Of a stretch of DNA of 64,000 nucleotides, positions 6,497 through 55,844 are shown in pieces. Source of the DNA: Marsupella aquatica (Eukaryota > Plantae > Marchantiophyta); NCBI GenBank assembly GCA_973895155.1, contig OZ316891.1, forward strand, positions 8,185,875-8,249,874. Direction: 5' to 3'. The notes under the pieces are model-generated. The model saw nothing but the letters and a program-made list of their open reading frames with translations, did not search any database and was not told where the DNA came from. Both the position numbers and the translations under genes were made by a program. Position 1 is the stretch's first letter, and every line of letters begins with the position of its first letter.

Positions 6497-6817
6497 TGTG
6501 GGGAGAAATCAGATCAGGAAAAACACTCCAAACATACACGTGCTCAATAGCCGTGGTTCGCCTCAAGGTTGACTACGTCCATGGGAATACAAAGCTTTAT
6601 AAACGGTTATGTGTGTACTCAAGCATCACCATAGCTCTCATCTCTTCAAGCTCTCATCTCTTGCTATATCCCTGTGTTCTCTCTTGAGAACTCTCTTGTG
6701 TGTTCTCACACCACATACAAGTTGAAGAGATAAGGACCAATCTCTTCAACTAGGGTTAGAGCAAACCGTAGTTAATATACGGCCATAGTTTAACCCAAGA
6801 CTGAGTTAACCTCTACA
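6497..6817 (-). repeat. 3' LTR of copia-1
   Basis: TG...CA ends; matches 27776-28099; adjacent PPT AGGGGGAGTT on the minus strand. Confidence 0.93.
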
Positions 6818-7059
6818 AACTCCCCCTTGACTCAGACACGTCTTGGGAGGGTTCATAACATTGTCTTTTCCTTACAAGTTCCTCCGCAGGAAGTTCAAGA
6901 CAATAGGGCCAAAAGGCCCTCCCCCTAATGCAAGGGTTAACTAGAACTAAGCCGTAGCCGATAAGCCATCGGATGGAGTACTCATATAGAGATATTTTCT
7001 TGGTTAACTCTATATTTACAATATTTGTAAATAATTACAATGCCTTGAAAAACTATTGG

Positions 7060-9903
7060 AGTCTAATACTTTGGTAAAAGCATCCGTTGGATTAAGCTTT
7101 CCATAAATCTTGACAAGCTCAAATTCATCATCCAATAATGTCTGTCGGATGAAATGATAACGGACATCAATGTGCTTTACCCTGCCATCCATCACATGAT
7201 TCTTGGCAGTGTAAATTGCACTTTGACTGTCACAATGAAGATATACACACTCTTGTGATTAACCCATCTCTGTGACAAGCATTTTCAACCAAATGGTCTC
7301 TGATGCTGCTTCTGTTGCCGCTACATACTCGGCATCCATAGTAGACTTTGCAACACACTTTTGGAGAGTAGACTTCCAACTAATGCATCCACCAGCTAGT
7401 GTAAATACATATCCAGTTGTTGATCTCTTCTTATCCAGATCACCTGCGTAGTTTGAATCCACATAACCTTGAAGCACTTTCATATTGTTTGAACTTGCAT
7501 CAAACAATAAACCCTTCTTAGTGAAACCTCTGATGTAGCGCAAAATCCATTTCACTGCTTCCCAATGAACTTTTCTTGGATTTGCCATGTATCTGCTTAC
7601 CTTGCTCACGGCATAAGCTATGTCTGGTCGGGTGTAAACCATGAGATACATTAAACTACCCACAACACTTTCATAAGGAACTTTGGACATCAAACTTTTT
7701 TCTGTCGCATCCGATGAACAAAATGCTGCAGAAATATTGAAATGTCTTGCCAAAGAAACACTCATAGCCTTAGCATCTGCCATGTTGAATTTTGAGAGCA
7801 CCTTCTCTACACATCTTTTCTATGTCAGACAAAGTTTGGCTTTGTTCACATCCCTGATAATCTCCATGCCTAGGATCCTCTTGGCTGTGCCAAGTCCTTC
7901 ATCTTAAACTCAAAACTGAGTTGGGCCTTAAGCTTGTCAACTTTGCCCCTATCCTTTGCTGCAATGAGCATGTCATCAACATAAAGTACAAGGATGACAA
8001 ACTTAAAAACTGTGCTATTCACATGCTTGATGTAAACACATGGATTGTACACGCTTCGCACAAATCCAAGCGATTTCAAAAATTCATCAACACTGCCTTG
8101 GGCTCTACTTTAATCCATACAAGGATTTTAGCAATCTGTATACCAAATTTTCCTTGCCCTTTTGCACAAAACCCTCTGGTTGTCTCATGTAAATCACCTC
8201 ATCCAACGATCCGTATAAGAATGCCGTGACAACATCCATTTGATCTAAAATCAGATCAAATAAAACTATAAGAGCACATAGCAAACATATTGTTGAATAC
8301 TTTGCTACGGGTAAAAAACCTCATTGTAGTCTATACCTTTCTGTTGAGTAAAACCCTTGGCTACCAATCGAGCCTTAAATATCTTCTCAGCATCCTCTGT
8401 GGGTCCATCTTTCTTCCTATACACCCACTTGCTGTTAACAGCCTGCTTGTCACTAGGTAGACTTGTGAGTTCCCAAGTCTTGTTATCATGAAGTGATTTC
8501 ATTTCCATGCACATCACCGCCTGCCACTGTTGCTTCTCCATAGAAGCTAGGACCTCTCAAAATGAGGATGGATCTCCATCTTCTGTCACCAATGCATCAA
8601 TAGATTCTTCATCCAAATCCACTTGATCAGAAAGGAAGCCAAGTTCCATACCTTTCCCGGGCTTGACGTTTGCGAGTTCCTTTTCGCACTGAAGACTATG
8701 ACTGATCTGATTGTAGTGTGCTTTGCCTTATAGTGGTGTCATCATATTCTTCATCTGACACATCCTTTCCCCTTAAATTCTCTAGAGGAGGAGATTGTTT
8801 TTTGTTAGTAGTAGGGAATTGATGTATCTCCCCCTCCTTCAATGATTTTTCTTCATTGAAGGATACATCCCGACTAACAAGTAACTTGCAATCAACTGGA
8901 TCCCACAATCGATAACCTTTAACTTCATGCTGATAACCAAGAAAAATGCATTTCTGGGCTCTAGGATCTAGCTTAGTCCTATTGTTGCTAGGAACATATG
9001 CATATATTTCACAGCCAAAAACCCTAAGCTTTGAATAATTAGCAGGTCGATTGTGCCATAGCTCAAAGGGGGTTTTGTAAGTGATTGCCCGACTAGGAGA
9101 GAGATTTACTAGATAAGCAACAATGTTGACAGCTTCCGCCCAAAAGATTTTTGGCAATTTAGAGTGGCTCAACATGCTCCTTGCTTGCTCCAACAATATG
9201 CTGTTGAGTCGCTCAGCAACACCATTTTGCTCAGGAGTGTACACAGTTATGAGATGGTGAGTAATTCCCTTATTTGCACAATACGTATTGAACTCGCTAG
9301 AGGTATATTCACCACCATTATCAGATCGTAGATATCTCATATTCTTTGCAGTTTGTGTCTCAACTTGAGCTACCCATTGTTTGAAGATGGAAAGCACTTC
9401 AAACTTATGGGCAATTAAATAAATCCAAACAAACCTTGAGTAATCATCAATCAACGATACATAGTATTGCTTGCCTGAATGTGAGGAAACTGGAGTAGGA
9501 CCCCACACATCGGAATGAATATACTCAAGTACAACTTTAGAATGATGAATAGCAATCGGAATTGGAGTTCTTGTTTTCTTGCCGACAATGCAATGATCAC
9601 AAAAACTCAACTTGCATGCTTGCAATCCTGGTAGGAGATGTTGCGTAAGATTTCCAAACTTTTTTCACTCATGTGTCCAAGTCGAGCATGCCATAAATTG
9701 ATTTTCTCCTCCTGAGATGTGACCAAATTGACTTCGGCAAGAAGGGTGGTGCCTTCCAAGACATAGATGTTTCTTTTTCTCTTATCAATAATAACTTCAT
9801 TTAATCCATGTGTGACTGTTAACACCCCATCAGTTGCACTCCATTGATAACCCTTCGCATCGAAGTAGTCAAGAGAAATCAAATTCTTACACATTTCTGG
9901 AAT
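7060..9903 (-). pseudogene. Copia-1 pol 3' part (GAG-pre-integrase, integrase, RT, RNase H), frameshifted
   Basis: Motifs LWHARLGH, HSDVWGP, LRSDNGGEY, PEQNGVAER, KARLVAKGF, LYVDDM, GYVDSNYAGDLD and KHIDVRYHF are spread over several broken ORFs. Confidence 0.92.
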
Positions 9904-12699
9904 AACACGATTTCGGACCGAACGAGAACTATTTCCTCTAAACGAGAAGTGTATTTTCATTTTCCGCCGAATCTCGCAAAATCGGCAGTTTTTTCATCAA
10001 AAAACAGCAAATTTAATAATGATCAAAACCAATGAAATTCATGCTAACAAACATTCATATTATCAAGGAACAATTAGATCCGAAAAACTTTCTCCTCAAC
10101 CTCATATTCACGCTCTCCGAAGATATATGAAAGGTCTTATCTATAAATCCATATCCATGTTTCGAGCCAAGTGCGATAACTGTATCAGACTCCGGATTTG
10201 AGCCATGAAAGCTCCGACCCAATCTCAGTTTTCTCAGTTTTTGGATATTTACCAAAAATATTTTACATCATAGTCGATAAGAATTACTGCACGGTTCGTC
10301 AAACTTACCTTGTAGTTACCTCCGCAATTGACCAGTTACCTCTGCAAGTGACCATAGTCAACATGCCATTCTTTCAACAGCAATGCGCAGTCCGATAAAA
10401 TTATCGCGAAAACTACGGGCGACAAAAATACTAGTCGATAATACTAAGATCCTTCGGTTCATTGGTTAAATTTCAAAATTCCTATCCAGATGAAGAAAAC
10501 TCTTCGCAATACCAACATCAGATAAATTTATCGCTTCAATTTCAAAATTGCAACTTCCATATGAAGGAACCACTTTTGCAATACCAACATCAGATAAATT
10601 TATCGCTTCAATTTCAAATTGCAACTTCCATATGAAGGAACCACTTTTGCAATACCAACATCAGATAAATTTATCGCTTCAATTTCAAAACTATATAATT
10701 TTGCCACGATGCACGTGTGAGAATGAAATTGGAAATCCAAGAAATATACCTTTTTTTGCTATTTTGTCGTTTAGGGTGACAGCCAATCAAAAGTGGACAC
10801 GTGGGCCAACCCCTCAACAGACACTATAAAAGGGCTACAATTTTCATCCAACTTTACAGTACCTTGTATAACGGGCTGTGAAGCCAATGCACTTGTCAGC
10901 TAATCGTCCGAAGAGGCGCAAACAAATACACTCTGGACCACACAACCCGAAGTCAGGGGAGGCAGAGTCAATTACATTCAAAGTGTTTCTTTACAAGCTC
11001 TTCTCGAGCAAACCTTAGAGCACCCAAAATTGACTAGAGGAATGAGGAGTGCGATAAATTTATTGGATGTTCGCAGCAATGCCTCATCCACTCAGACTCG
11101 TCCATGCCATGCAAGAATTGTCCGCTTCCCGCTTTCTCCAAGATTTATCCAAACTCTACGAAACTGATCTAACTGCTCATACGGAAAGCACCCAAGCATA
11201 TCTATGGGAGGGAGGAAATGAGTTTCCTCTCGGAAGACCCTAGCAATATGTAAGTTTGAGAGAAGGTCGGCATTAGGAATGTTTGCGAGCATTTTGTTTA
11301 TGTCATTGATCTCACGGACTGCATATTTCAATAGCGCCCAAAATCGTGTACCAACAACAAGATGGTTCCATTTCTTTGAGGTGGCTCCAAGACAAATGAT
11401 TGTTCTCATTCGAGTCAGTCGTTCTTATGGTAGAAGTTTTAGGTCAAGGCCAAGGTGTTCATCTTGTGTGCAAGACAAGGCTAGGAGGGGCCAAATGTGA
11501 GATCCAACATCAGATAAATTTATCGCTTAAATTCCAAAACTACAAACATCCATATGAATAAAATCTATTTTGCAATACAAACATAGATATATTTATCTCT
11601 CAAATTTCAAAACTACGTAATTTTGCCAAGATGCACATGTAAGAATCAAATTGGATATTCAAGAAATATACCCTTCTCTGTTATTTTGTTGTTTAGCGAG
11701 ACGGTCAATCAAAAGTGGCCACGTGGGCCAACCCCTCAACAGACACATACTATAAAAGGGCCACCGCCGATGAGTTTTTGGCGTCATTATCTAGAGTAGA
11801 GTTTTTTTTGGAGTTGTGTTCTTGGAGCAACATTTTGTCTGTTGAGCCATTCATTTTCCCTGATTGAGGGGAGGTATGCAAAGCCCCATAGTGTCTCGAA
11901 TAACCATGTCTCAATCAGACACAGATTCACCTTCAAGTTTAGTTAAAATCCTCTCCTAATATTGTCGCTTGCTCTTTGCCAAGTCGCATCCCTAAAGCTC
12001 TACCTCTCGCATAGTAGATTGTGCCTGAAATCTTTGACTTTGATTGGGATTCTGATGCAAGTTCTGGTCCTAAGCCCAGTTCTTACTATGTGTTGCCTAA
12101 TAAACCTGAGAAGCATCGTCTCTTGAGCGTTCCATCGCCAAGAATTGAGAAAATTCAATCCCACGTTTAGGTCTGAGACGTCGCTTCAGGCCATCTATCC
12201 CGAGTTATGGAGAGGGTATTCGGCAATTGATATGCGTATCGCACTCGGCATTCGAGTCGCCACATTCAACTCACATTCAATGACGGATTTTTCAGTCTCC
12301 GGGTGAGGAACATGAAGCAAAAAAGAGTAAGTTTCTAAATCTGTGTGTAGTACCCGATAATTTTATTGGGTTGAGGATTCCAATGCTTCTTCTTTGGTAA
12401 TTGTGTGTGAATATATTGTTTGAATAGTTTGAATACTTATCCCGATAAATTTATCGCTATCATGGTTTAACATTATGGTAATCGAATCAAGTGTTTGAAT
12501 ACTGAACCCGATAAATTTATTGCTATCAATCCAGCAAAGTTCTAAACTTTTTTATTATTGAGGAAAATTCTCAACATTGCTAAACGAGCATCGGAAGGCA
12601 TAAGCATTGGAGAGGGAGAAGTTAGCAAAGCACCGGAGCAAATATAATAAGAGTTCTGAGAAATATTTGGAACACGAATTCGGACCAAAGATAACATGG

Positions 12700-13460
12700 A
12701 CAACATAACACCACTATTAGACTTGGCTCATTGAGGGCTTCAAAATGAATCCAAACATGACTATCTATAAACACCCACAAACAACATGTCAACCATTCTT
12801 AGTTTTGTAACTTTCTATAATGATAACACAATATCAATCTTTGGAATACAAACAATGATAAATTTATCGCAACTTTCATTCCTCTTTATATTTTAGGTAC
12901 TCTTGGTTGGTCTCTCAAGGTTAGATCCATTAGTACAGGGTTTTGAGGAACAAATCTTGTCCCTATTATTATCTTGTATTGAAAGATAATATGGAAAACA
13001 TAACGCCACTAATAGATTGGGCTCATTGAGAGCTTCAAAATGAATCCAAACATGACTATCTATAAACACCCACAAACAACATGTCAACTATTCTTAGTTT
13101 TGTAACTTTCTATAATGATAAAACAATATCAATCTTTGGAATACAAATAACGATAAATTTATCGCAACTTTCATTTCTCCTTATATTTTGGGTACTCCTG
13201 GTTGGTCTCTCGAGGTTAGATCCATTAGTACAAGATTTTGAGTAACAAATCTTGTCCCTATTATTATCTTGTATTGAAAGATAATATGAAAAACATACCA
13301 CCATTTTTAGATTGGGCTCATTGAGGGCTTCAAAATGAGTCCAAACATGACTATCTATTTACACCCACAAACAACATGTCAAGCATTCTTAGTTTTGTAA
13401 CTTTCTATAATGATAAAACAATATCAATCTTTGGAATACAAACAACGCTAAATTTATCAG
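12700..13460. repeat. About 295-bp tandem repeat, roughly 2.5 copies, within the TIR element
   Basis: GGCTCATTGAG.GCTTCAAAATGA.TCCAAACATGACTATCT recurs near 12725, 13020 and 13314. Confidence 0.85.
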
Positions 13461-14478
13461 AACAAAAGTTTATCGAACAAAGGAATCCAGAATGTGATAA
13501 ATTTATTGCATGTTTGCTGGAATCTTGAATCCAACAGAGGAATCACTACAACACTATCGGCCGGTTTTGCGAAGACAATCTCATCGCAACTAACAAGCCC
13601 CTGATTCTCATAATTCTGGCTATTGCGAACATACGCGCATCGCACCCCCTTCGCACTTTGCGAACCTAATAACTTCGCACGCGGACCATCGCAATGGCAT
13701 CGCAACATCATGGCAAACTGAGAAGCTGAGAGGTTCGCAATATTCAATACTTCTGCGATCCATTATACGTCGCATAAGGTTCGCAAACATACACGCACAT
13801 GTCCCGCGCGGGCGTCAATATTTGAGACGGATTTACCATCGCATCATATTTGCGATTGATACTGGTTCAATTGTTTTGATGGGGATTGTATGACAAAGAG
13901 CGATACCGGTGATTTCAGAAGTTTGTGAACGGTTGCGATTAGGAAAGTGCGATCCTAGAAGTATCACAAAAACCCGACATATTTGGATCTGAAGTTCTAA
14001 AGTTAATTGACTCAAAAAGTGCGACGCCTTGGGGTTAATATTGTGCGATGGGAATGAGTTCTTAAAGGGTTCGCAAAATTATGATCACACAGGATTCAAT
14101 ACATTATTTGCGAGGGATTTTCCTTGGAACCCAATGTGGAAGGCAAAATTGTTGTTTTATAAAATGGAAAAGCATGAACAAAATGATAGGGCTTCAAAGA
14201 ACCCTATACATGGACAAGAGGGGGGAAATATCTGATGCTAGGTCCGCCCTTCTAAACCTATGCTGCCTCTTCCTACCCTAAGCTCCGGCATGACAAGTCA
14301 CTCTCATGCATGTATCTCTACAAAATAACTAGAATGGGCTCTTGCGGCTCCTCTTGGTTGGCTTCTTGGCTGGCTTCTTGCCCTTATCCTTCCGGGGATC
14401 CTGTTGGTGACGGGTGCGTGATGGCCGTCGGCGCTCCTGCTCCTGCTCCTGCTGCTCCTCTGGCTCCTCCTGCCCCTC

Positions 14479-16375
14479 TTACTCCTCCTCCTCATCCTCA
14501 GGGTCCTCCTCCTCCCCCTGGTCATCAACGTGTGCTGATGACACACGACTACCACCACTACCACGGTGGGAAGAACCTACCTCACGACTACTCCCCCCCC
14601 GAGCACCACTAGTACCAGGAGTAGCCCCCTCATCGTCATCACTACTGGTCACATCAGCACCCGACCCCTCAGGCTCATCCGAATCCTGCATCCATTACAT
14701 ATCATTAGTTTCCGCAAGACATAAAGGGTCACTCACAATGTTCGCATGCTAATCATATGGTTCACACTTAGACACTTACAGTAGCCAACTCGGCATCTAC
14801 CATCGCAAAGAGGTACTTTCGTCCATGCTCTATCGCCACCTCAATATGCTTTTTTGATATCTTCCTTTTGTACCTCCGATACTGCCATGCATAAAACCAA
14901 TTAAAATTGGTTAAATTTGCCCTTAAGCATACCCTATAGCCACAAGTGACGCCTAAATCCTCAACTACTAAACATGACCCAAAAAAATTTTAAAATTCAA
15001 ATTTGCGAACCTATAAGCATAGCAACTTGCGAACCACCTTTTTTTGCGAAGGTGTTGCGATGGAGTTTGCGATGCGCATTTGTTCGCAAAGGCATCGGAA
15101 AATTGAAATGGAAAAAGTCTATGATAGACTTTGCGAGGGGTTTGCGAACAAATACGCATCGCAACACCTTCGCAAACTGTGTTCCCGAGAGTTTTTAAAA
15201 ATTTGCCAGAAATTCTAAGTGTCAGAGTTGCCCTAAACTAGTAACCAAGCAAGCATGCACAACAGCAAGAACCTTCGGGGATGTCATTCACTTGCATTGC
15301 ACAACTCTGAAAGGAATAGAGAGGTTAGGGAGGAGCAAGAGGCACTCACAAAGTGTGACTTGAGGCCGGGGAGCCCGCCTTGACCCAACTTGTGGACTGG
15401 ATTGGGGGTGGATTTCACTCGTTTGGCTGCATCTGTGAAACGCTTGGGTGGCTTTCCCTCCTGGTCGGCCACCTTCTGCATCTCAGCTACCTTCTGCTCA
15501 AGTGGCTTCAGGTCGTGGTCAGGGGGGAGCTTCCCGGCCTCCTTTGCTTTCAAGGCTCGATCTAGATTGCCCTTCCACTCTTCCAACTCGTGAGCTGCCT
15601 TAATTTGCACCTCAATCTTGTAAAACGAATTCCAGATGTCCTCGGTGAAGTGGAGGGGTCTGCGCAAGTTCCTGTATGATCTCAAGTCTTTCAGGTGGGC
15701 TCTAATCTTCATCCTGTCATGGTATCGCATTTGAGACATAGAATTTGAAATCTTATCTGCCAACCATTGCTCATCTATGTCAGGCCCATTGCGAAATGCA
15801 TCCTTGATTTGGTTGATGACCCTCTTTCGCTCTGCCTTCTCAATCTTCCCCCACTGCATGCCTCATGAGAAATTGCTTGTGATAATTTGCTTGATTGTGC
15901 TCTTAGCCCCTGCATATGCTAGCTCAGTTGGAGTCCCACTCGTCTCCAAGGCAATGAATGGAAGTTTTTTTCTTGCTTCCTCTTTCTGACGTTGCTCCTC
16001 CCTCTGTTTTCGAATTGAATCTCTCTCCTCTCTTCTCTTCTGCTTCTCTAGGGCTTGAGGAGAGGCAACTCCCGACTTAGTTCTTTCCTCTCTCTTCCTT
16101 TTTTTCTCTCTAGTCTTCTCTTCAGCTGCGGCCCTCTCCTCCCCCTCTCTAGTAGCTTGTCCTGCTACAATCCCAGTTTGCAAAACCTGTCCAAGAATGG
16201 CACTCAAAGAGGCAAGCCCTGCTGGAGAATTGAGATTCACTTCTCCCAATTGTGCAACACTGAGATGTTGGGCCACTAAGTCTGCCCAGGCATTCTTCTC
16301 TTTCTCTGGATTTCCCCCATTGCCACTACCACTACCACTACCACCTTGCCCTCCACTCCCCTCACCGGTAGCCAT
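14479..16375 (-). pseudogene. CACTA accessory (TnpA/Ptta-like) gene; predicted exons 16375-15350, 14881-14780 and 14685-14479; one in-frame TGA at 15863-15865
   Basis: Two in-frame ORFs separated by a single stop; charged coiled-coil segment; RPLHFTEDIW...HKLGQGG resembles the Ptta/En/Spm (Transposase_24) signature; phase-0 GT-AG junctions; acidic C-terminal tail. Confidence 0.6.
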
Positions 16376-16789
16376 AGCTCCCCTCTCTCACAGTCTCCCT
16401 CGTACTGTTGCGCGCGCCCCGGCCCTTCTCGTCTCGCTCAAAAACTGAAATGAGCCCAAATGCGAGCTCCCGCCAATGTTTACACCGTTCAAAAACGGGT
16501 TTGCGATGACATACACATGGGAAACTGCAAAGTCCGCGCCCTCGCAAATAGTCTCGCAACTTGCGAGGCACTTCCGAATCTATTCCCTTCGCAAAGCCAT
16601 CGCAACCCGCAGAAGACCCAAAAAATTGTTCTCGGCCTCTGTTTTTGCGAAGCAAGTGCGAAGGTCGTAGGTTCGCAAAAATATTCTCTAACTTGTGAAA
16701 TAATTTGCGAGGCAGGTCTTATCGGTTTAGGGTTGGAAAACACTTTGGGGTGTCAAACGGCTATTAAGGTTTGTCAAACGACATTTAAG

Positions 16790-17665
16790 GTATGTTAAGT
16801 GCCCATAAGTTAACATGGAAGGGGTGTCAATGGATGTTTGGGTTGTAAGGATAACTAGAATATAAGTTAACAAAGGTTTGGGTTTAATTAAAGGTTAGGT
16901 TTATATTTGGTTTTAATCTAGGAGTATTTGGTTTAATTAAGGGGGTTAAAACTTGGGTTAGGTTGGAATAAAAGGGTTGGGTTTAAATTAATGGGTTTGG
17001 CTTAGGGTTCAAGGTAGAGGTTTGCATTAGGTTGTGAGTAATTACAGGGGTTGGGTTTGGTTTTAGTTGAGGGGTTGAATTGTGGTTGTTTTTTAAAGGG
17101 ATTGGGTTTGGTTTTTAGTTGGGGGGTTTAATTGTGGTTTTTTTAAAGGGGTTGGGTTTCTAATGTAAGTGTTTGGGTTGGGGTGTAACATGATATAGGG
17201 TTGGATTTGGTTCTAATTGAGGGGGTACAATTTTTGCTTAAGTTTTAAAAAAGGGCCTCAATTTAGGGGTTAGGGTGAAGTTTAGAATAACTATAGGGGT
17301 GGAGGTTGGCCTATATAGGTAAAGTAAGGTGTAGATAGGGTAAGAGTTTTATATGTAATTGGGGGATTTGGGTTGGGTTTAGGGTAAAGGTTTGAAATTT
17401 TAATGAGGGATTTGGGTATTGGTTAGGATAAGGGTAAGGGTTTAGGGTGCTTGAGGGATTTGGGTTAGGTTTTAATGAAGGGTTTCATTTCATGGTTTGG
17501 GTTTAGGGTAGGGGTTTGGGTTTAGGGTAAAGGTTTGAATTTTTAATGAGGGATTTGGGTATTGGTTAGGATAAGGGTAAGGGTTTAGGGTGATTGAGGG
17601 ATTTGGGTTAGGTTTTAATGAAGGGTTTCATTTCATGGTTTGGGTTTAGGGTAGGGTTTGGGTTA
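16790..17665. repeat. G/T-rich, telomere-like (TTTAGGG/GGTTTGGG) low-complexity tract with a 143-bp tandem duplication (about 17375-17665)
   Basis: The plus strand is strongly C-depleted, with many GGTTTAGGG units. AGGGTAAAGG recurs at 17381 and 17524. Confidence 0.85.
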
Positions 17666-18096
17666 CTTATATTTATTTGTCTATCTCATTAACATGGAGA
17701 GGAAAACTCTTTGGCGTTGTAGGGCACTTCCCCATGTTTTTTAAAGTTTTGGCTAATGCATGATAATGCCTTGCGAGAGCCCGGGCATCTGAAAGGTATA
17801 ACATTTTCTCATGCATTTCTAGTCATTGCTGTAAATATGGAGGGTTACAATCTATCATCCTTTTTTTCTGGTTCACCATAAGGCATGGCTTAATTCATTG
17901 TATATTGGCAGATTTTCCCCTCCTTCCAGATTTGGTTCATGAAATTTGAGCCACAAGATCCGTCAAGGCATTGCTAAGCCTGGGTCTCATAAAGGTATTT
18001 TTCTGTCAATTCTTTTTAATATGTTTAGGTAGGGATTATCAATGATGGTTTTGGTGAAGTTTTTACTAATCGCCTTCCAATTGCTATACTTGTCAG

Positions 18097-18330
18097 ATGT
18101 CTTCATCCTCTACAACTTCCACCACATCAGATTCCTCTTCCGATGAAGAAAGTCATCCTCCTCCTCAACCTGAACCAACCGTACGTCGACCTAGTGGTCC
18201 ACCACGCCAACTTTGTGGTTGTAAAAAATGTGTGGGGATGGTTGTCCAAAAGTCATATGTATGTGCGGAGCACATTGCTCGATATGGCCAACATCGAGGT
18301 CTTACACCGGGAGCTTCTTCATCCCGTATG
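18097..18330 (+). CDS. CACTA first coding exon: Ser-rich leader plus transposase-associated Cys/His domain
   Basis: ATG follows an AG acceptor; CGCKKC...C..HIARYG resembles the En/Spm transposase-associated domain; phase-0 donor ATG|GTGAGT at 18331. Confidence 0.7.
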
Positions 18331-18442
18331 GTGAGTTGTAAACTTACTGTGATTTCCATTTTATTTTGTAAATCTTGCTAGGTAGCATAAAATAAAATTT
18401 GGGAGGTTCATCACACTCACTTGGTTCCATTTCTTCCTATAG

Positions 18443-19257
18443 GTATCCAGTAGGCCTACACCCACTACACCAACACCCTATGTTCCCTCACAAGGAGTTC
18501 TAGATGCTATAGGCTCGGCACTTTCACAAGCTTTTCGTTTAGTGGCAGCAGGGCAAGGTAGTGTTGGGACAATTAAGGGTGACGGTATTGTTACAAGAGG
18601 GAAAAAAAGTCAAAAAGACAGCCTAGAGGGGAAGTGGATCAGTACACTTGTAGGGTTGATGGTAGATGGGGCCCTTGTACCTTCACAGGGAAGTGTGTTC
18701 CTATCATAAAGGATTGGAATCCGGAGTGCCTTGGTTTGCCATGTGATATAACCTATGGTGAGGAGATAGAAGTTTGGGGAAGACGTTGGGTTGTCAAGAG
18801 TTCGACCCTAGGGGAGAGGCATGGGTATGGGATTTTCTCTTGTCAGGACATTATTGTGGATGATATGGGTGGAAAAGGGCGCTCTTCAGATGGACCAACG
18901 TTGTTCCCGTATGGTGGACCCATTTACAAGAGGAGACATTTGAACATGATCCTTGTTCAACACCCTGAGTGGAAGACTTATGCATTGGACATGGATACTT
19001 TTGATGGTTGCACCAGAAAGTATTGTGACCAGCGTATAATTGATGGTGATCCCATCCGTAGTGGGAATATTGCCGGTTTCATCAACAGTACTGTGGGGAC
19101 CCGGCCTAAGCGTAGGAAAAACTGTGAATGGGTTTTTGTTGATGGTCCCCCTCCAGCCCCTTATGGGCAGAGATATCATCATGACCATTGTCTAGTTGTA
19201 GCTAATAGGACCATTCTGGTTGGAGAGGAGTTGTTTACACATTATGAATGGGATTAG
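18443..19257 (+). CDS. SET-domain (lysine methyltransferase-like) exon inside the CACTA; -1 frame offset at the A7 run 18602-18608
   Basis: ORF 18634-19257 has the four SET motifs in order: VKSSTL..HGYGIFS.QDI, PYGG, IDG...GNIAGFINST...NC, and VVANRTILVGEELFTHY. Phase-0 acceptor TTCCTATAG| at 18442. Confidence 0.8.
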
Positions 19258-19407
19258 GATTACTTTAGGGACATGTATTATACGTTCATCGTATGTGAAC
19301 GTATGTTTTGTAATGACATGTTCTTTTTATATTGTTAATAATATGTTTCGAGCACTACTATATTTGGCGTTAATTTCATTGTGAATACTTTATTGTATTT
19401 TCTATAG

Positions 19408-22400
19408 AATGTGCGGCCTAGTCAAGATATATTGCCAAGGAGGTTGAGAGCTACATATCAAGAAATGGGCTTGCCACAAGACGGGGAAACATCATCAGCA
19501 GATTCCTCATCAAGTGACAATGATAATGACAGTCCAGATGAAGGGGCACCTCGGACAGATTATGAGGTCATGCAAGACCAAGAGTCAGCCATGGATGACT
19601 TCATGACAGATTGGTTTGGTGTAGACATTGGTGGTGAAGGAGGTGTCCCACCCAATGAAGGAGACCCTCCACCAAATGTTGCACATGATCCAAGCCTCAA
19701 CGTACACCTGAAGGACAAAAACAATGGGAAGAAGCTGAGGCACATGCTAGAACACCTATTTATGGGGGTGCTCGTTTGAATAGACTATCTGCCATCTTGG
19801 CATTGATGAATCTTCAGGCAAAACACAAGGCAAGCAATGCGCTACTATCGGATTTGTTTGCAATTTGCCATGATCTCTTGTTACCTAGTGAAAATGTGTT
19901 GCCAGGAACTTGGAAGGAGGCAAAGAGGGTTCTATCATCCATTGGCATGGAATACCATATCATTCATGCTTGTGTGAATGACTGCATTCTCTATCATGAG
20001 ACCAATGTCAGCGCAACTGAGTGTCCAATTTGTCAAGAGCCTCGATATGAAACCAACATGTTGACCTCAAAGGTGCCTAGAAAAGCTGTTCGTTGGTTTC
20101 CTATTATTCCTCGATTGTTGCACATGTACCGATGTTCTGACTTGGCAGAATTGATGGTATGGCATAAGACACATCGATCAGAGGCCGGTGTCATGCGGTT
20201 GCCAGTTGATTCCCCTGCTCACAAGCATGTGGAGTCACAATGGCCAGAATTTGCACGTGACCCTCGTCATGTGAGGTTGGGGTTGGCATCAGATGGGGTA
20301 AGCCCACACTCCCTTGGAGGGAAAGGGCGCCCTACTTCGGTTTGGCCGGTGGTTGTTATGAATTACAACCTTCCCCCATGGTTGTCCATGAAAAAGGGAT
20401 TCTTATTGCTATCATTGATTATCCCAGGTCCATCTAAGGTAAAAAACATGGACACCTACTTGGCGCTCTTGGTTGGGGAACTCCATAAATTATGGGGGGG
20501 TGTATGGGCATATGATGGTCGGACAACTACAGGAGGGTTACCACGTGTCTTCCAATTGAAGGGAATCATTATGTGGACCATGCATGACTATCCAAGTGAG
20601 TGGTATGGATTTGTATTTTTTTCATGTATTGGAGATCAAGTTTGTTTGGAAGGAAGTCCCTCTTTAATTCTATGTACATGAACTTTTCAATTCCTTTGAC
20701 TCTAATTGAGAATGTTATTTTGTGAGCAGGGTTTGGGTTTGTTTCTGGGTTCCAAACTCAAGGGTACAAGACATGCTCCACTTGTGGTCCAAGCCTTCAC
20801 GATATGGCCAAGTACTCAAAATGGCTGCACAAGATAATCTACCTTGGTCATACCAAGTTTCTTCCACTTGGGCATCACATGAGGTCTGACCCCCTTTTGT
20901 TTTCAGACTTTGACATGATCAATGGTGATGAGCGTGAGATACCTAACCGCACAACATTTTCGTATTGGAAGTCCATAGCTGATAGGGTGGCAGACCCTGA
21001 AGATGCCATGGGATTTGATGGTAGTGGATTGACAAGGTGGGGTATACTGGCCACTTTGCCCTATTGGCCTGAGTTGAAGATTCATCACTTGTTAGACCCC
21101 ATGCATATAGAGGGAAATGTTGGGAAGGCTTTGATCAAGCACTTTTATGGGGAAAAGAACATTAATTTTAGGGAGGCATGCCAGGATCTAGAACGACATC
21201 CAGATGTATGGATAACAGTTGATGAATCCACAGGGATGGAACATCGTCCTTCAGCTCCATGGGTTTTGAGTGTTGGTGAAAGAAGAGAGTTTCGACAACG
21301 CATAGGGCAGATGCGGTTTCCTACAGGCTATGGTGCCAATCTACGTAAGGCTTTTGGGATGGAGGACAGTCATAAATGGCCAATGTATCTCAAGACACAT
21401 GACTATCATCGTTTACTACAACATATACTTCCTATGGCAATCATAGGTTTGGGGAGTGAAGAAGTGCAAGACGCCCTTTGGTCACTGGGCACTTTGTTGA
21501 GATGGATATGCTCAAAGAAAATATATGAAGAAGAGATACCATGGATGGAGGTATTGGCAGTAGAGGTGGTATGCAAGTTGGAGAAGGCCCTCCCTCCTTC
21601 CTTCTTTGATTGTCAGGTGCATCTTCTCGTTCATCTTGTGAGGGAGGTTGCCATTGCCGGTCCGGTGCATTGTAGGTGGATGTATTGGCTGGAAAGGTAT
21701 ATGGCCGTGTTAAAGGCTTATGTACGGAACCGTGCACGAGTGGAGGGGAGCATGGCAACTGGATACTTGGCAGCTGAGAGTATGTTTTATTGTAGTAACA
21801 TCTTAGCTACCATTGATCCTAGTTTTCCACGCACTTGGATGGAAGAGAGGGAAGTGGAGGAGGACCGTTTAACAGGTGCAAAAAAAACACGCTTACTAAC
21901 CGCAGTGGAGTTGACACAGGTTAGTACTTTCATGTTGAGTAACAGCAATGTGATGGAAGATTGGAGAGAGTTTTATGAGGATGCAAAGAGGGAGAGTCGT
22001 CGCCCAAGGATCTTTCCAAAGTTCCTTGAGTATATGAAGGAGAAAGTACTTCAGTTGGATGCTATGGTGGCCCAAGGTGAGAATGTATCACATTTTCCAG
22101 ATATGACTCCTGAGGTTCGAACAATTGTTCATGGTCCTTTAAGACTTGTTCAAACCAAAACAGCAATGTGGACACAAGGGAGGCATTTCAGGATTTCTGA
22201 CCTTGATGAGAAGAGGGGAAGAACTTTTGATTGTGGAGTTCAAGGGCAGTTTATGCAAGATTCACAAAGTAGCCGTCATGACACTAATGTGATCAGAGAT
22301 GTGGTGCCTCACTATGGGAAGATTGAGGAGATCTTGATCATATCCTATGATGCCGATTCCAAATTTGAAGAGTATGTCTTCAAGTGTAAGTGGTTCAAAA

Positions 22401-22675
22401 TTCACCTGGTTGGTGATAATCGCACGGTACTTCTTGATGAGTGTGGGTTTACTCGACTGAAGACATCAGCAACTAGCTTTCAACCATCTCATTGGCAAAT
22501 ATCTGAACCATTTACATTCCCAAGTCACCTTGAGCAGTGTTTCTATATTCCGTACCCACTAGACCTAGAGTGGTCAGTTGTTATACCGTATGTGCCACGG
22601 TCCCGTTCCATTATCTCGGAAAAACCTGACGTTATTATTGTGTCAAATGGAGGCAAGGATGAGGACCAGGTTTGA
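19408..22675 (+). pseudogene. CACTA Tnp2/TnpD-type transposase; exons 19408-20595 and 20730-22675; frameshift near 19690
   Basis: Motifs IHACVNDCILY, CPICQEPRY, RHVRLGLASDG, YNLPPWL, WTMHDYP, LDPMHIEGNV, LKTHDYH, PPSFFD, RWMYWLER and FKCKWF; GT-AG intron 20596-20729 restores DYP-xFG...CSTC. Confidence 0.92.
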
Positions 22676-24184
22676 TGCACTAGTAGTAAAACTTGTTGTG
22701 GGCCCAGAATTTGACCCTAAACTAACTATCATGGTTTTATTTATATTAACATATTACTTTTCTTCTTTTGTTTTACAAACACTTAATTGGACTTTGAAAT
22801 TTCATCTCACTGTTATATATGCAACCTTAGCCGTTTCCAAAGCTATCCTCATGCATGCCACCTTTTTGAAAACCCTAGCTGTAACCTAAACACATGCATT
22901 CTCCATCTTGTAAAGAAACTCTCTCAAACATTTCCATTCTACAAAATTTTCAAACAACTCTCTTTGCAAAACATTTTCAAGCTTGTCAAGAAGCAACTTC
23001 TGAACACTTTGTGAATAACACACCATCGGTAATTGTGATGCCAATGTGTTCTCAACTTTGCGAATCAACTGGATTCGGTAACTTGCGACTATTTATGCTT
23101 CACAATATTGTGCGAAGCTAATAGGTTCACAATATATATTTGAGTACATTATTATCGCTAAATTATGAAACAAAAGAGATCCAAATGCAGTCGCGATGGT
23201 CGCGGATCCACAAATACTTTGCGAGATGAATAGTATCTGAAAGAGTTACGAATTCAATCCGATCTCAAACAAATTGCGAGGTATTTAGCTTCGCAACACC
23301 ATGTTGCGAACCTGTGAGCATGGTTTATTGTGATGCGTGTTTGATCACAAAATATCTTAAGTCGATGACATCGCAAGACCATCCTGGCGTCAAAAAAAGC
23401 TTCGCAAAAGGGGCCAATATGTAGTAGTGAATGCAAACTATGATAAAATTGTCGCATGTTTGTTGAAATCCTGAATCTAACCAAGGAATGCAGACTACGA
23501 TAGTTTTATCGCATGTTTGCTGGAATCCTAAATCCAACAGAGGAATGCGGATTGTGATAAATTTATCGCATGTTCACTGAAATCCTCTCACATTGATAAT
23601 GAATGAATAACAAACCTTACATAATTGATAATACTCAAACCGGAATGCAAGTTCCGATAAATTTATCGGGTTTTTGAGAGAAAGATTCAAATCTCCTTAT
23701 AGGAATGTAAGACTTGATAGGAGTTTGGTATTTTCTTTAAGACAAATGTTGTTTGATCTGACGATCAAACTAAACTTTTATGGCCATCTCACTCCTCCTT
23801 ATATAGGGAATGCTCTAACCATGGTTACTATTTCCCACAAACCATTTTTGAAAGTTACAAATCTAAAACCCAATGCACGTATCGCTGCCTAAATTCTTGC
23901 GATGATGCAATGTCCAGAACTGATGTTTTTTTGATTTGACATCCATTTTATTGGAGTTTGCATTGCCTTAGAAAAAAATAGAGTCGGGCTAAACGAGAAG
24001 TGTGTCACACTTCTTGGTCGGTCCGAAATTGTGTTGCCATGAGGATGCAATAAGTTTATTGCACTTTGCATTCACCTAGAAGACATGACCCCATCAAACA
24101 CCTAAGCCCTGAATCCATCATAGGAATGCGCGCTCTGATAATTTTAGCGGATGTACTTTGAACTATCTGACTTCAATCCATTAA

Positions 24185-24497
24185 AGGAATGAAGACTCCG
24201 ATAAAATTATTGGAGTCTCAAATAATCTTCAATCAATCACAGGAATGGAGACTCCGATAAATTTATCGGAGTCTCAAATAATCTTCAATCCTTTAGATGA
24301 ATGAAGACTCCAATAAATTTATCGGAGTCTCAAATAATCCTTAATCCATTACATGAATGGAGGCTCCGATAAATTTATCAGAGTCTCAACTAATCCTCAA
24401 TCCGTCAAAGGAATGAAGACTCCGATAAATTTATCGGAGTCTCAAATAATCCTTAATCCGTCAAAGGAATGAAAACTCCGATAAATTTATCGGACCT
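24185..24497. repeat. About 59-bp tandem repeat, 5-6 copies, each with a palindromic core
   Basis: Perfect 28-bp palindrome GAGACTCCGATAAATTTATCGGAGTCTC at 24248-24275; variants occur in neighbouring units. Confidence 0.85.
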
Positions 24498-25153
24498 TGA
24501 ATATAGTCTATGGAATGAATGCTCATTCCTATAATTCTATTTGATGTTCTTCAAACATATTCAATTCTTCGAAATAATGTAACTGAGGAATGCAGAATGC
24601 GATAAATTTATCGCAATCCGCTCGGGTCAGGACATTGACACCAAATGACAAGTCAACATTACATAGATGTTACTCAAACTGGAATGGTAGTTCCGATAAA
24701 TTTATCGGGTTCTCTAGAGAAAGAGTCAAGTCTCTTGTGAGGAATGTAAGACTTGATAGGAGTCCAGCATTCACTCTGAGTGAGGTGTTGTTTGCTCCGG
24801 CAAAAATAAACTTTTCATGGGCAGCCCGCTCCTCTTTATATAGGGGATGCTCTAACCATGGTTACTTTTTCTATTAACCATGGTTACATTTGCACTAACC
24901 CGGGTTAGTGCATGGTCGACCCTCGATTACGTGGTTCGGACCAATTTACTCGTAGTTTGGACTTTTTCACAGACCGAATGTAAAACCCGATGCACGTATC
25001 GCTCCCTGCATTCCCGCGGCGATGCAATGGAGGAAAGTGGCGTTTCAGAGAGTTTTTGCCAGTTTTATCGGTCATTGCATTGCCTTAGAAAAAAAATGGG
25101 ATTGGGCTAAACGAGAACTCCGACACACTTCTCGGTCGGTCCGAAATCGTGTT

Positions 25154-26262
25154 GAATGTGTCTGACATTTGATAGAGTACAGTACTTGCCACCGGGTAGT
25201 TGAATCTTTACGGATCCAATCCCTAAAACTTTGCAAGAATAATTATTTCCCATCAAAATAGATCCGTTGATAGGAGTGTAGGATGAGAAAAGTTCACGCA
25301 TATAACACATGTGATAGGAGCAAGTGGAATCCAAAATCCATTGACAATCCTCAACTTGGGAAGTGGTACACAATGCAAATCCTTCACTATCCTCTTCTCG
25401 AACAACTACTTGGGCTGAAGAACCGACAACTTCCTTGAATGTGTCTTTGAAGCGACAATCCTTCTTCATGTGGCCCACTTTGTTACACTTCCAACACTTT
25501 ATCTCACGAGTAGACTTGGATGGTGATTTGGATCGAGATCTAGATATAGATCTAAACCCCTCCTCCTACCAAATGATCGCTCCTGGAACCTTCCTCGCTC
25601 CATGGAAGGTGGGTTAAACCTTTCATTTTCATGAAATGACTCCCTTGTCTTGCCTCTTTCTACCAACAGTGTTGTTGATGATGAGGTTGAGATAGGATGA
25701 GCTGAAGAAACCAACTTAGATTGCATGTCATCGGTCAACAGGGCACTCACCACATCATTGTAGGATATAGTTATCTTATCACGGAATAGAAGATTTTGAG
25801 ACAAAGATTGGTACAAAGGTGGTAGAGAGCTCAAGAGTTGTAAGGCTTTCTTTTCTTTGCTCAAATGCTCTCCCAAATTCTCTAGGTCAACCACAAGATC
25901 ATTAAACTAATCGATATGATCTTGAATCTTGACTCCATCAGCCATTTTGAATTGCATGAGCTTCAGGCTTGCATACATTCGGTTTGACATCTCCTTCTTG
26001 TAGTACTTGTTGCATAATGCTTGAAACAAGTCCGTCACCGTTTGTGTTGATTTTTCCTTGAACATGCCAACAATGCTTACCGCTTGATCCTGGAGATCAT
26101 GCCAATCATCATCTTCCATCTCCTCGGGTTGAGATCTTAGTACCTTGCCTAGGCCCATCGCCCTAAGTGCATCCCTCACATTACGTTCCCACATTGTAAA
26201 GTCCATTCGACCATCAAATATTTCCACTTAAACCTTTGACCTCCAATCCTAGTAGTCGTCAT
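25154..26262 (-). pseudogene. Copia-1 gag and protease remnant
   Basis: EIFDGRMDFTMW, KALQLLSSLP, zinc knuckle (GHMKKDC) and protease QWILDSTCSYHM; stops and frameshifts present. Confidence 0.9.
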
Positions 26263-27775
26263 CGCTGGAATGTCAAATGTTGTGTTGAGTTGCCTTCCGC
26301 AAGAATTAAACGTCAAATGCTCAGATGTGGGGTGTGAAAATAAGGCCAAAAATAAAAGTTGGTGAATTTTGAAACTGATCACTCCTCTGTGTAGCCCACA
26401 AGGTAATGCTCCAAATTTTGAAAACGCTTTGTCAAATGGACTCTCGAGTGCCAATAAATTTTACTTCGACCGGAGGGGGGTAAAAGATGAAATAATTACC
26501 CCTCGAGGGAATCTATTATACCAAAGATTCCACTAGTATACTTTTTCAAAATCAAACGCACCAATACTTGTCTAGCCCAAGTGGCCATACACAGGCTCAG
26601 ACCTTGGCACTCCGCGGGAGCCTGTTTTTGCCCACCCCAAAGAAACCCTACTCTTCTTTTATCTGTTTTTGTTCTTTTCTCACTAATCAACTCCTCTGCC
26701 CACTAATCAGCTTCTTTGCCCTTTTGCCATTGGTACCAATTTTTCTTCGTCTTCTTCTTTGCCTTGAAAGATCTTTTGAATTCCATTCACAAAGACAACA
26801 TACAACAAGGCAACCCAAAGGGCAACACCAGGGGAGACCAAAATTTGCAAGGCTTTTCCCTTTTTCACTGGGGTGTGGCAAATGTCACCTGGTTCAAGGC
26901 AGCACAAGATGCTACAATAACATTATTAATATATTCCTCTCCAAAAGTTGCAGTTGATCCGATTTTGGTTGCCGCTCGGAATCTTTGACCTTCGGTAAAA
27001 ATTTAAGCCTCTGGAAAAGAATCTTTTTGGGAAATTCCATCCGCCCTTGTACAGCCCCTGTGGGGGACTTCACAGGGGGCACTTCCCCTTGCCCGAGCCC
27101 TGTTGAGCCCTAAAAGGCCTCCTCAAACTTTTTGACCTCCTCGCGCGCCCACGCAAGTCGCAACTACTCGTAGTAGAAAGTACCCCTCGGCGGATTCACT
27201 CAAATTCCTGTCTCAGTTTTTGACGAAATCCAATTATGATTTCAGATTCATAAACTAGACTGTGAGGGCATCAAGATCAATATAAAGAACTAGCAAAAAG
27301 TGGAGTAATGAGGGAGAAACAATTCGGTGAAAGTGACTGATATTAAATTATCCGCCATATCCAAAATTTTGAGCTCAAAAAACAAGAATTGAAATTAAGA
27401 TTGCTTCTCAACCGTTTGACAGACTTCAACGATGTTGATATCAAAACGTCTAGAAAGACAAGGCGCTCAAGCGTATCTTAGTTTCAAGTCTCGATAGAAC
27501 AATCAAAAAGACTGATCTGTGAAATTGACCTTATCTCTTGCCCGATAACATAAATTGAAAACCGTCACTTACAATTGTTTTCACTTCTGACCTCAGGCCT
27601 TCATTCTTCACTGAAATGAGCCCCTGGTTGTGTGCTCCACACTTGTGAGAAGATTGAGTCCGATGTTCTTCCAATAGCTCCGCTTCGAAGAGGAAATCAT
27701 CCGTTGTTCGCTTCGCTTGAAGCAAGTTCTATGGAGTTCCTAATCGACTGAAAAAATCTCAGCTCTGATACCAAT

Positions 27776-30303: not shown

Positions 30304-30880
30304 CAACCTTCTTTGCTGGCACGGTGGTCACCCTCAAGCAAGGTTAATCAATTCCACTCATTCATCAATCACGGTATTCCATAAGTGCCAACAGCCAGCT
30401 ATAGCCGAGCCCCTTGCACTTACCTAGGTTTCGCTCTTTGGTATTCTTGGTCGCAGTCCGTCGGATACAAAATCTGACGGTTGATGTACAACAAAAACCT
30501 ACGTCGAGAGAGAACAAAGAAACTGGCTTCACGTGTCAATTACTACCTGTAGAGTATAATTGGTGGCCCAGCGCCGATACGGTATTTCGACAGCGTACTG
30601 ATTTTCCCTTTTGCGCCAATCAGGTGGCATCTCCACTACAGTTGAGGCGCCGTACATCCCAACACCGTTTCTTTGTTTTTCCGGTCCGCAACTCCACGAG
30701 GGTTTTTATACTCCACCCTTCGAAGCTCGAGCACTGTGTGTGACGATCGATCTCTCTGTGCTTCCGTTCTTTCCTGCATCTCTTGTGTCGTCGACTTCGG
30801 GAGCTCCTCGAACGATCTTGGAATCTGAGCTCGAGCTGAGGAGAGGAGAGGAGAGGGGTGAGAGATCGATTGAGGCGAAA

Positions 30881-32872
<1,992 letters not shown>

Positions 32873-37951: not shown

Positions 37952-37974
37952 TTTCAATTCGGTGCTGCTCGTGA

Positions 37975-38270
37975 ATGTTCAACCGATCATCGACGATTTG
38001 TGAACTCTATTTCCTCTAGTGGGAGCTCGACCTTCCCTTGACGGCATGCACTTTACACAACAGCGATCGTTCCTCAGTGGAGTGGAAAGCAAAGTGCCAA
38101 TTGGTTACACAAAACCAATCAACCGATCATTGACGACTTGTGAACTCTATTTCCTCTAATGGGAGCTCGACCTTCCTTTGACTACATGCGCTTTAGACAA
38201 CAGCGATCAATTTCCTCAGTGGAGTGGAAAGCAAAGTGCGAATTGGTTCCCCAAACCAATCAATCTCCTC
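37975..38270. repeat. About 140-bp tandem duplication in the upstream region of AKR copy 1
   Basis: AACCGATCAT.GACGA.TTGTGAACTCTATTTCCTCTA.TGGGAGCTCGACC recurs at 37981 and 38121. Confidence 0.75.
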
Positions 38271-55600: not shown

Positions 55601-55844
55601 AAGCAAGTAGTGTTTGCTTGGAGAGATGGAACTCAGGCTCATTCTTACAGAGCTAGTTGAGAGATAGAGAGAGCTTGTGCTGTGGGTGCTTGGTATGGCC
55701 GGTCGGCCTAGAGTGCAGTAAAGCTCTTGTGTGTTCCCGTGGACGTAGCCTCATGTGGAGGTGAACCACGTATCTCTCTGTGTCGACTCTTGTGCGTTGG
55801 ATGGTTCATGGGCTTGCCGTTGCGATTGTCGTCGATGCTCAACA
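49648..55844 (+). mobile_element. Full-length Ty1/copia LTR retrotransposon (copia-2)
   Basis: 345-bp LTRs at 49648-49992 and 55500-55844 (about 9 differences by eye); TSD AGGGG; PBS TGGTATCAGAGC at 49995-50006; PPT AGGGGGAGAT before the 3' LTR. Confidence 0.95.
51164..55310 (+). pseudogene. Copia-2 gag-pol with several stops and frameshifts
   Basis: Motifs CWKCNQVGHFKRDC, WILDCACS, LWHSRLGH, HSDVWGP, LRSDNGGEY, LYVDDM and KHIDVRYHF. Confidence 0.92.

Follow-up and report, generated by a model that had tools for sequence, protein, structure and literature searches.

A full-length CACTA (En/Spm) transposon of the liverwort Marsupella aquatica carries a true SET domain, encoded in an exon that lies between the first exon and the remaining exons of its transposase gene. 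Taken as a whole, the reading that this is a bryophyte CACTA family with a selected SET exon, likely spliced into a second protein that is a predicted lysine methyltransferase and likely keeps the element's own chromatin permissive, falls in our judgement a little short of an even chance; its parts are graded separately below. The element is filed here as a CACTA with a SET-fold accessory product, a predicted enzyme and not a proven methyltransferase. It lies in a stretch of 64,000 nucleotides that was analysed at full length (the window; contig OZ316891.1, positions 8,185,875 to 8,249,874 of the forward strand, assembly GCA_973895155.1), and coordinates refer to this window.

Structure of the element and state of the window copy

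The features of the element are as follows.

13544–23429, no strand assigned: full-length CACTA (En/Spm) element, 9,886 bp, with an AAT target-site duplication (TSD) at 13541–13543 and 23430–23432
13544–13574, plus strand: left imperfect terminal inverted repeat (TIR), beginning CACTAC
13567–14113, no strand assigned: TCGCA(A) clusters of the left subterminal region, with others at 15003–15175, 16501–16710 and 23058–23407
14304–16375, minus strand: divergent accessory gene with its ATG at 16375 and, in the window copy, an in-frame TGA at 15865–15863; ORF2/TnpA-like by position only
16750–17670, plus strand: G-rich, GGGTTT/TTAGGG-rich spacer between the divergent genes, holding a 143-bp duplication
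18097–18330, plus strand: exon 1 (78 aa), a Ser-rich start and a CxCxxC...H domain, with a conserved phase-0 donor
18443–19257, plus strand: exon 2 (terminal, ending in TAG), a linker with a basic stretch followed by the SET domain, with a phase-0 acceptor
18634–19257, plus strand: SET module (207 aa) with a conserved N-terminal extension (residues 1–49) and no post-SET
19258–19407, plus strand: A+T-rich spacer of 150 bp, ending in the exon-3 acceptor
19408–20595, plus strand: exon 3, an acidic linker and the N-terminal half of Tnp2 (ASDG, WTMHDYP), with a phase-0 acceptor
20730–22675, plus strand: exon 4, the transposase core and C-terminus with an open frame (CxxC, LDPMHIE, KTHDYH, HxxxH, WLERY; DUF4218, DUF4216)
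23400–23429, minus strand: right imperfect TIR

The CACTA superfamily is defined by CACTA...TAGTG termini with TIRs (PMC4158355). The present element begins with CACTAC at 13544 and ends with GTAGTG at 23429, and its TIRs of about 30 bp are imperfect. It is inserted in a 57-bp tandem repeat, and excision of the element together with one AAT restores one repeat unit; because the joined flanks rebuild this unit, the duplication is real, and the preliminary description of a CACTA bounded by TIRs and a TSD is borne out. Downstream of the SET frame, Pfam profiles identify the Tnp2 domains Transposase_21 (PF02992, E = 2.9e-39), DUF4218 (PF13960) and DUF4216 (PF13952), and the C(2)C and H(3-4)H motifs of the transposase are present in the window copy. 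Four metagenome loci (L003, L009, L034 and L036) reach a related left TIR, identical at 21–22 of 30 positions, with three different flanks among them, and one (L020) reaches a right TIR identical at 27 of 30. Termini and TIRs, a 3-bp TSD, a Tnp2-type DDE transposase, subterminal repeats and dispersed insertions all agree with CACTA, whereas the Tnp2 transposase and CACTA ends do not agree with an assignment to Harbinger or Mutator. Positions 1–2449 of L020 represent an internally deleted copy that keeps the SET domain, exon 3, the start of the transposase and the right TIR.

TCGCAA occurs 66 times in the window against 22 expected, and TCGCA 57 times within the 9,886-bp element against 44 times in the 49,400 bp outside it. 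The clusters, which we infer to be candidate TnpA-type binding sites, lie at both element ends, at the divergent promoter and in the intron region of the divergent gene. All four loci with a left TIR repeat the three clusters of the left-hand side. The divergent gene is conserved at 42–61% in eight of the 11 loci with at least 2 kb upstream, and its product has no match among Pfam or Atlas families. The stop of the window copy recurs in L033 (near 1071) at a codon that reads Arg in L005 and L007, which fits recurrent CpG deamination; the CpG observed/expected ratio is 0.32–0.39 in coding parts of the element and 0.8 in a nearby host gene. The spacer between the divergent genes is strongly G-skewed, with 22 GGGTTT/TTAGGG hexamers, compared with 0–8 in the shorter spacer of related loci.

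Exon 1 is 52–80% identical to its counterparts in 17 loci and in named gene models. Its CxCxxC...H domain resembles the transposase-associated, predicted zinc-binding profile PF13963, with an E value of 0.0086 that is below the cut-off. The preliminary description had presented the SET domain as a 207-codon ORF. Its motifs are in order as described, but it is not a gene of its own: it forms the 3' part of exon 2. The SET frame spans 18583–19257, with 207 codons counted from a GTG at 18634, and it is not a free-standing ORF, since it starts at this GTG and its first in-frame ATG is at residue 78, past motif I. Among 49 matches from 78 candidates, named homologues include P0001 of Calypogeia fissa (77%) and P0005 of Sphagnum (72%). 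Both begin with a Ser-rich stretch and the CxCxxC...H domain, which in the window are encoded at 18097–18330, and both gene models join exon 1 to the SET exon. The spacer between exons 2 and 3 has a length of 142–155 bp in 20 loci and is predicted to comprise the 3' end of the SET transcript and the tail of the intron skipped in the other splice form.

In the window copy, exon 2 is frameshifted at an A-run near 18601 and exon 3 near 19693, and the donor position at 20595 has A for G, so that this copy would yield neither an intact SET protein nor an intact transposase. Contigs of all six sequencing runs (X1–X6) have one A more than the window near 18601, and those of five of the six have one G more near 19693; one X6 contig carries a frameshift of its own inside the SET domain. 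The best contigs of X1, a run that may derive from the source of the window itself, differ from the window by 0–6 letters in 245–735, and the window copy is therefore recent but broken, or else contains assembly slips. Contig depth in X1 is about 540–620 along the element and is not read as a copy number. The claim of a compact, open SET domain thus holds at the level of the family, in which contigs have the exon open and L007 has an open exon-2 frame of 266 codons, but not for the frameshifted window copy.

The SET domain and its predicted activity

The SET frame contains the motifs HGYGIF, PYGG, GNIAGFINST and GEELFTHY in order and scores 25.5 bits against PF00856 (cut-off 22.4). An AlphaFold model of the SET module based on a 65-row alignment has a pLDDT of 92 and a pTM of 0.87. 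Foldseek returned 304 PDB matches at E ≤ 0.001 (best E value 2.5e-7, probability 1.0), all of the matches listed being SET proteins, and VIA fold comparison gave Z scores of 11–12 (best 12.1) at 16–26% identity to SET enzymes. An earlier model based on 34 close rows was poor (pLDDT 57) and had no significant fold match, and searches of solved structures with a single SET protein or a close alignment likewise found none. The profile and structure comparisons that had been suggested as checks therefore identify a true SET domain, and the details first described are accurate: the motif-IV Tyr is kept, Ser replaces the motif-III His and there is no Cys-rich post-SET.

Host plant SET classes (SUVH, ATX, ASHH, E(z) and ATXR) have flanking pre-SET, SRA, PHD, PWWP or AWS domains. 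None of these was found in the window frames or in 58 family proteins scanned with Pfam; 35 of the 58 have a SET match, three have Transposase_21 and none has a canonical host partner domain. Giant viruses contribute stand-alone SET proteins to the nearest clusters and folds. An origin in viruses or bacteria, hinted at by such matches, was not accepted, as the identities are 14–25% and host-type enzymes score alike; none of 28 SET pattern matches in viral contigs was confirmed.

Of the canonical elements, motif I GxG, motif II YxG, motif III Asn and motif IV Tyr are present. In the numbering of the module the motifs are G64-Y-G66 for motif I, Y93-G-G95 for motif II, followed by Y116, G148-F-I-N151-S152 for motif III and E199-L-F-T202-H-Y204-E-W206 for motif IV. 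In the family alignment (65 rows) Gly66 is conserved in 62 of 63 rows, Asn151 in 60 of 65, Tyr204 in 56 of 57 and Trp/Phe206 in 40 of 57, and position 93 is aromatic in all 65 (48 Tyr, 17 Phe). Few columns of the alignment are better conserved, in rows down to 25% identity, than those of the SAM-side residues (GxG and Asn151) and of both catalytic tyrosines. Alanine mutants of yeast Set1 at Tyr967, Asn1016, Tyr1054 and Phe1056 are null (PMC3585878), and the residues kept here match these positions; the register is backed by the ends of the aligned ranges, which place residue 207 on residue 1057 of Set1 and on residue 338 of SET7/9.

In motif III, Ser replaces the His in 63 of 65 rows, and Gly or Ala the Arg in 64 of 65. 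According to PMC3585878, Set1 H1017A and Y1052V/A remain active or become hyperactive, with H1017A hyperactive, and the corresponding MLL1 mutant (H3907A) binds SAM poorly. The best solved profile match, LegAS4, is an active H3K14 enzyme that also lacks this His. The His-to-Ser change is family-wide, has active precedents and is weaker evidence for a decoy than the preliminary description implied. The Phe/Tyr switch position holds Thr, Ala, Val or Cys in the family, and small residues at this position of Set1 favour or keep trimethylation (PMC3585878). The tail past the motif-IV Tyr comprises three residues in the window, with a median of three in its subfamily and of 5.5 in 56 rows, none of which has a Cys cluster. 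In cofactor-bound SET structures the post-SET helps to form the cofactor site (PMC3868588). Its absence is the main doubt about activity and stronger evidence for a decoy than the His-to-Ser change; the N-terminal extension, an inserted loop (residues 168–185) or a partner may replace it.

Judged from the conservation pattern, SAM-dependent methylation of lysine by the SET protein is somewhat more likely than not. The small residue at the switch predicts that the enzyme could add more than one methyl group, and its cofactor pocket would have to be closed by a partner or by extensions of its own. The fold is about equally near to H3K4, H3K27, H4K20, H3K9 and H3K36 enzymes, so that neither the substrate nor an activating or repressive direction can be read from it.

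Distribution, linkage and selection of the SET exon

A metagenome scan gave 174 pattern matches that collapsed to 37 loci, 36 of which were confirmed. Of the loci in which the SET end is complete and the downstream sequence covers 600 nt or more, all 17 have Tnp2 3' of the SET domain (17 of 20 if three truncated SET copies are counted). Exon 1 lies 5' of the domain in all 16 loci whose SET start is complete and whose upstream sequence is 600 nt or longer (16 of 18 in total). Three gene models of Riccia sorocarpa (P0093, P0116 and P0130) combine a whole or partial SET domain with Transposase_21, at 28–49% identity to the window in the SET domain and 49–50% in Tnp2. The linkage of SET to Tnp2 across diverged CACTA copies, raised earlier as a check, thus holds in all 17 informative loci and in three Riccia models, and the fixed position of the exon confirms, at the family level, that SET is integrated in the transposase transcription unit. 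All loci except L006 (35 of 36) probably belong to one young family with a median dS of 0.06, of peat-moss type as judged from protein likeness; the independent evidence for linkage consequently comes from about three lineages and the automated Riccia models.

A profile search identified 123 SET-family clusters at 50% identity, one of which alone has 360 members. The organism names among the named homologues are Sphagnum, Calypogeia or Riccia only, many of the distant rows being unnamed, and the best named transposase matches are bryophyte Tnp2 proteins. A tree was built from the 60 of 65 alignment rows that cover 125 or more residues of the span. In it, the window groups with Calypogeia P0001 and Sphagnum rows in a 16-row clade (support 100/97), and the four Riccia rows fall outside this clade in two other lineages. 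Elements of the moss Sphagnum and of the liverworts Calypogeia and Marsupella are about 70% identical in protein with a dS of about 1.5, whereas both are farther (30–50%) from those of the liverwort Riccia. This nesting of a moss family with a liverwort family would fit either old parallel (paralogous) lineages or horizontal transfer between bog bryophytes, both of which are possible. A distant member of the SET family in Calypogeia fissa (P0111/P0168, 503–506 aa) has an N-terminus of repeated Cys/His motifs and a 48-residue tail, and may be a domesticated gene or the cargo of another mobile element.

Substitution rates were estimated by pairwise NG86. For the SET domain, the window compared with 18 loci gave a median dN of 0.21, dS of 1.48 and ratio of 0.14; for the transposase, compared with nine loci, the corresponding values were 0.16, 1.44 and 0.11. 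Between families, the SET ratio is 0.11–0.29, about the level of the transposase and below 1, as the preliminary description had proposed to check, and bootstrap ranges for three between-family SET pairs are 0.05–0.20, 0.10–0.26 and 0.18–0.49. Because this ratio resembles that of the transposase, the SET domain is not decaying host cargo. Within the young family dN/dS is 0.5–1.3 in both domains, and stops occur in seven of 18 SET copies and seven of nine transposase copies. Such a contrast is usual where active lineages are under selection and dead copies decay. The spacer beside the SET domain is 56–59% identical, against 52–53% when shuffled, where the SET domain keeps 72%. The SET frame, then, has a profile and a fold match, is multicopy and non-neutral, and has no near-identical host SET gene among the sequences found.

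A neutral captured host-gene fragment (Pack-type cargo) would explain why the window copy and many related copies are broken. It is scarcely conceivable in view of the between-family ratios and their intervals below 1, the fixed position of SET across moss and liverwort elements and the lack of a canonical multi-domain plant SET protein among the 58 proteins scanned, and we regard neutral cargo as ruled out by dN/dS, linkage and the bootstrap intervals.

Two predicted products, proposed function and known systems

The exon-1 donor and the exon-2 and exon-3 acceptors are all of phase 0 in the window and in the loci, and in the window, as in the 20 loci inspected, the SET frame ends in a stop codon. 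The final 400 bases of the window's exon 2 contain no donor-like site. The matching phases suggest two products with a common exon 1. On these splice signals, exon 1 is quite likely to be spliced either to exon 2, giving a SET protein of about 350 aa, or past it to exon 3, giving a transposase of about 1,120 aa; with exon 1 common to both forms, both proteins would carry the CxCxxC...H domain. Of the joints listed in contigs of the six runs, which include no RNA run, none equals a predicted intron, a result that weighs neither for nor against expression or splicing. En/Spm similarly separates TnpA and TnpD by alternative splicing (PMC13547354; bioRxiv 10.64898/2026.08.24.746577). A 423-aa protein from a Logan contig (P0058) has the CxCxxC...H and SET domains in one frame and would fit a spliced transcript or an intronless element.

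A single SETMAR-like fusion protein, in which an internal donor would join SET in frame to the transposase, is improbable. Five automated models (P0050, P0093, P0116, P0130 and P0074) do join part or all of the SET domain to exon 3, but four of them truncate it at varying positions, which is what gene prediction does on broken copies, and both the recurrent stop and the lack of a donor-like site at the end of exon 2 argue against such a protein. Among close relatives, longer fused forms account for one match from 138 candidates, a partial-SET model.

In the proposed mechanism, one gene would give a SET protein from exons 1 and 2 and a transposase from exons 1, 3 and 4. The SET protein would be brought to the element by the N-terminal domain common to both products or, alternatively, be recruited by the ORF2 product bound to the TCGCAA clusters, and would there write a histone mark counteracting silencing by H3K27me3/H3K9me2. 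Clustered CCVTCGCAAA is the target of TnpA-Spm1, an anti-silencing factor of Arabidopsis (bioRxiv 10.64898/2026.08.24.746577), and the likeness of the element's TCGCA(A) clusters to this target makes docking through the product of the divergent gene plausible. Bryophyte transposons carry H3K27me3 or H3K9me2, and many are silenced by H3K27me3 (bioRxiv 10.1101/2022.10.24.513474); a mark opposing these on element chromatin is hence our best guess. Recruitment by either route together with such a mark is a tentative proposal, drawn by analogy, to which we give appreciably less than an even chance. A more specific version is doubtful: an old, bryophyte-wide CACTA lineage would splice its first transposase domain to a SET enzyme that lacks the tail, becomes active solely on docking to partners bound at the element, and thereby places a histone mark on the element's own copies.

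Two other readings of the SET protein have to be weighed against this proposal. The SET fold might have been retained for binding lysine and not for transferring methyl groups; as a reader or decoy, the protein would shield histone tails or titrate the silencing complexes of the host. The post-SET and the motif-III Arg and His are missing throughout the family, as would suit such a pseudo-enzyme, and PRDM and isolated EZH2 SET domains, in which the post-SET is misplaced, are poorly active (PMC3868588); the conservation of GxG, Asn151 and both catalytic tyrosines down to 25% identity and the hyperactivity of Set1 H1017A (PMC3585878) argue the other way, and we consider a pseudo-enzyme unlikely while giving it real weight. 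The protein might also be an active enzyme with another aim. It could methylate the transposase, a silencing protein of the host or the ORF2 product, or it could deposit a repressive mark by which the element or host genes are held in check. Non-histone proteins are the targets of many SET enzymes. The 58 family proteins scanned include no histone-reading domain, stand-alone giant-virus SET proteins are among the nearest clusters and folds, and the common exon 1 could dock the SET protein on the transposase. The top solved folds, on the other hand, are all histone-lysine enzymes, and the other transposon accessory proteins studied so far counter silencing (PMC12730594; bioRxiv 10.64898/2026.08.24.746577), which leaves an enzyme of other aim a rather unlikely reading as well. 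The preferred reading is still a methyltransferase that keeps the chromatin of its own element permissive.

The preliminary description knew of no SET-bearing CACTA family, which does not hold at the level of the superfamily. PAG2 of the red-algal Plavaka elements (EnSpm/CACTA superfamily) carries a PF00856 SET domain and has been proposed to be a chromatin modulator; it is a separate gene, one of a cassette of three in elements of 17–19 kb, and joins SET to an N6-adenine DNA methylase (bioRxiv 10.1101/2025.02.11.637652). Both are CACTA-superfamily DNA transposons with a PF00856 SET domain, but in the present family SET is a terminal exon in a canonical plant Tnp2 gene, joined to transposase exon 1, and the methylase (PF01555) is absent from the window frames and the 58 family proteins scanned. 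HarbingerS and oomycete MuDR elements also encode SET genes, assumed to counter silencing (PMC12730594), and SET-capturing Helitrons are known (PMC12730594; bioRxiv 10.1101/2025.02.11.637652). These resemble the present family as DNA transposons with a SET gene of their own and differ in superfamily, in host and in having SET as a separate accessory gene. In the literature surveyed we found no bryophyte or canonical Tnp2 CACTA with a SET domain, a record of which could be held in Repbase Reports, subscription journals or preprint supplements (the Plavaka tables; 962 Spm proteins); the Riccia sorocarpa genome paper and the main text of the Spm preprint (bioRxiv 10.64898/2026.08.24.746577) make no mention of one. 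The present family differs from these systems in its bryophyte host, the canonical Tnp2 transposase, SET as a terminal exon with a common exon 1, and the tail-less SET subfamily.

The En/Spm elements of maize and Arabidopsis are similar in that one CACTA gene gives a transposase and a regulator (by splicing that is predicted here) and in their clustered TCGCAA-type end motifs. TnpA, reported to be restricted to flowering plants, is a helix-turn-helix protein without enzymatic function that recruits DNA demethylases of the host (PMC13547354; bioRxiv 10.64898/2026.08.24.746577), whereas the alternative product of the present family carries an enzyme fold. VANC of VANDAL MULEs is likewise a plant transposon-encoded, family-specific anti-silencing factor, a role that is demonstrated there and inferred here; it belongs to the Mutator superfamily and has no SET domain (PMC12730594). 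SETMAR/Metnase places SET beside a transposase, as in the present family, but is a single-copy host gene fused to a mariner transposase, whereas this family is mobile and multicopy with predicted separate products. SETD8, the MLL1/Set1 core, Legionella LegAS4/RomA and giant-virus SET proteins have the fold (Z 11–12) and the catalytic tyrosines in common with the window SET, and LegAS4 in addition the missing motif-III His; these minimal SET enzymes, at 16–26% identity, retain post-SET or partner domains, whereas the present family has an N-terminal extension and inserted loops of its own.

In the literature surveyed, the plant anti-silencing factors described, TnpA and VANC, are DNA-binding proteins that act on DNA methylation (PMC12730594; bioRxiv 10.64898/2026.08.24.746577), and SET-carrying transposons are named from algae and oomycetes only, with activity not demonstrated (PMC12730594; bioRxiv 10.1101/2025.02.11.637652). 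If the proposal is true, a land-plant transposon encodes a histone writer targeted to its own copies, the enzymatic equivalent of TnpA and VANC. A small, selected SET protein in bryophytes allows the question whether a transposon can write its own histone marks to be put to the test in transformable plants. Among the gene models of Sphagnum, Calypogeia and Riccia annotated as 'SET domain-containing', hundreds are transposon products, which affects counts of bryophyte chromatin genes, and the tail-less family provides a natural test of SET function without a post-SET segment.

The flanks of the element (10400–13543 and 23430–24550) form a repeat region of 56-, 57-, 71- and 295-bp tandem units with a near-palindromic GATAAATTTATC core in common, probably an older non-coding mobile element. 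Decayed LTR-retrotransposon-like stretches with integrase and zinc-knuckle remnants, in repeated and inverted copies, occupy about 6500–10000, 25100–26500 and 49600–62600. An S-adenosylhomocysteine hydrolase gene (30602–32531, plus strand) lies about 7 kb outside the element. This enzyme removes a product inhibitor of methyltransferases, and its proximity is treated as coincidence. Three tandem aldo-keto reductase genes on the minus strand (36968–37978, 42172–43182 and 47949–49062, the third frameshifted) are without apparent introns and lie in 5.2–5.8-kb repeats; we take them to resemble fungal pyridoxal reductases, and a horizontal origin is worth checking.
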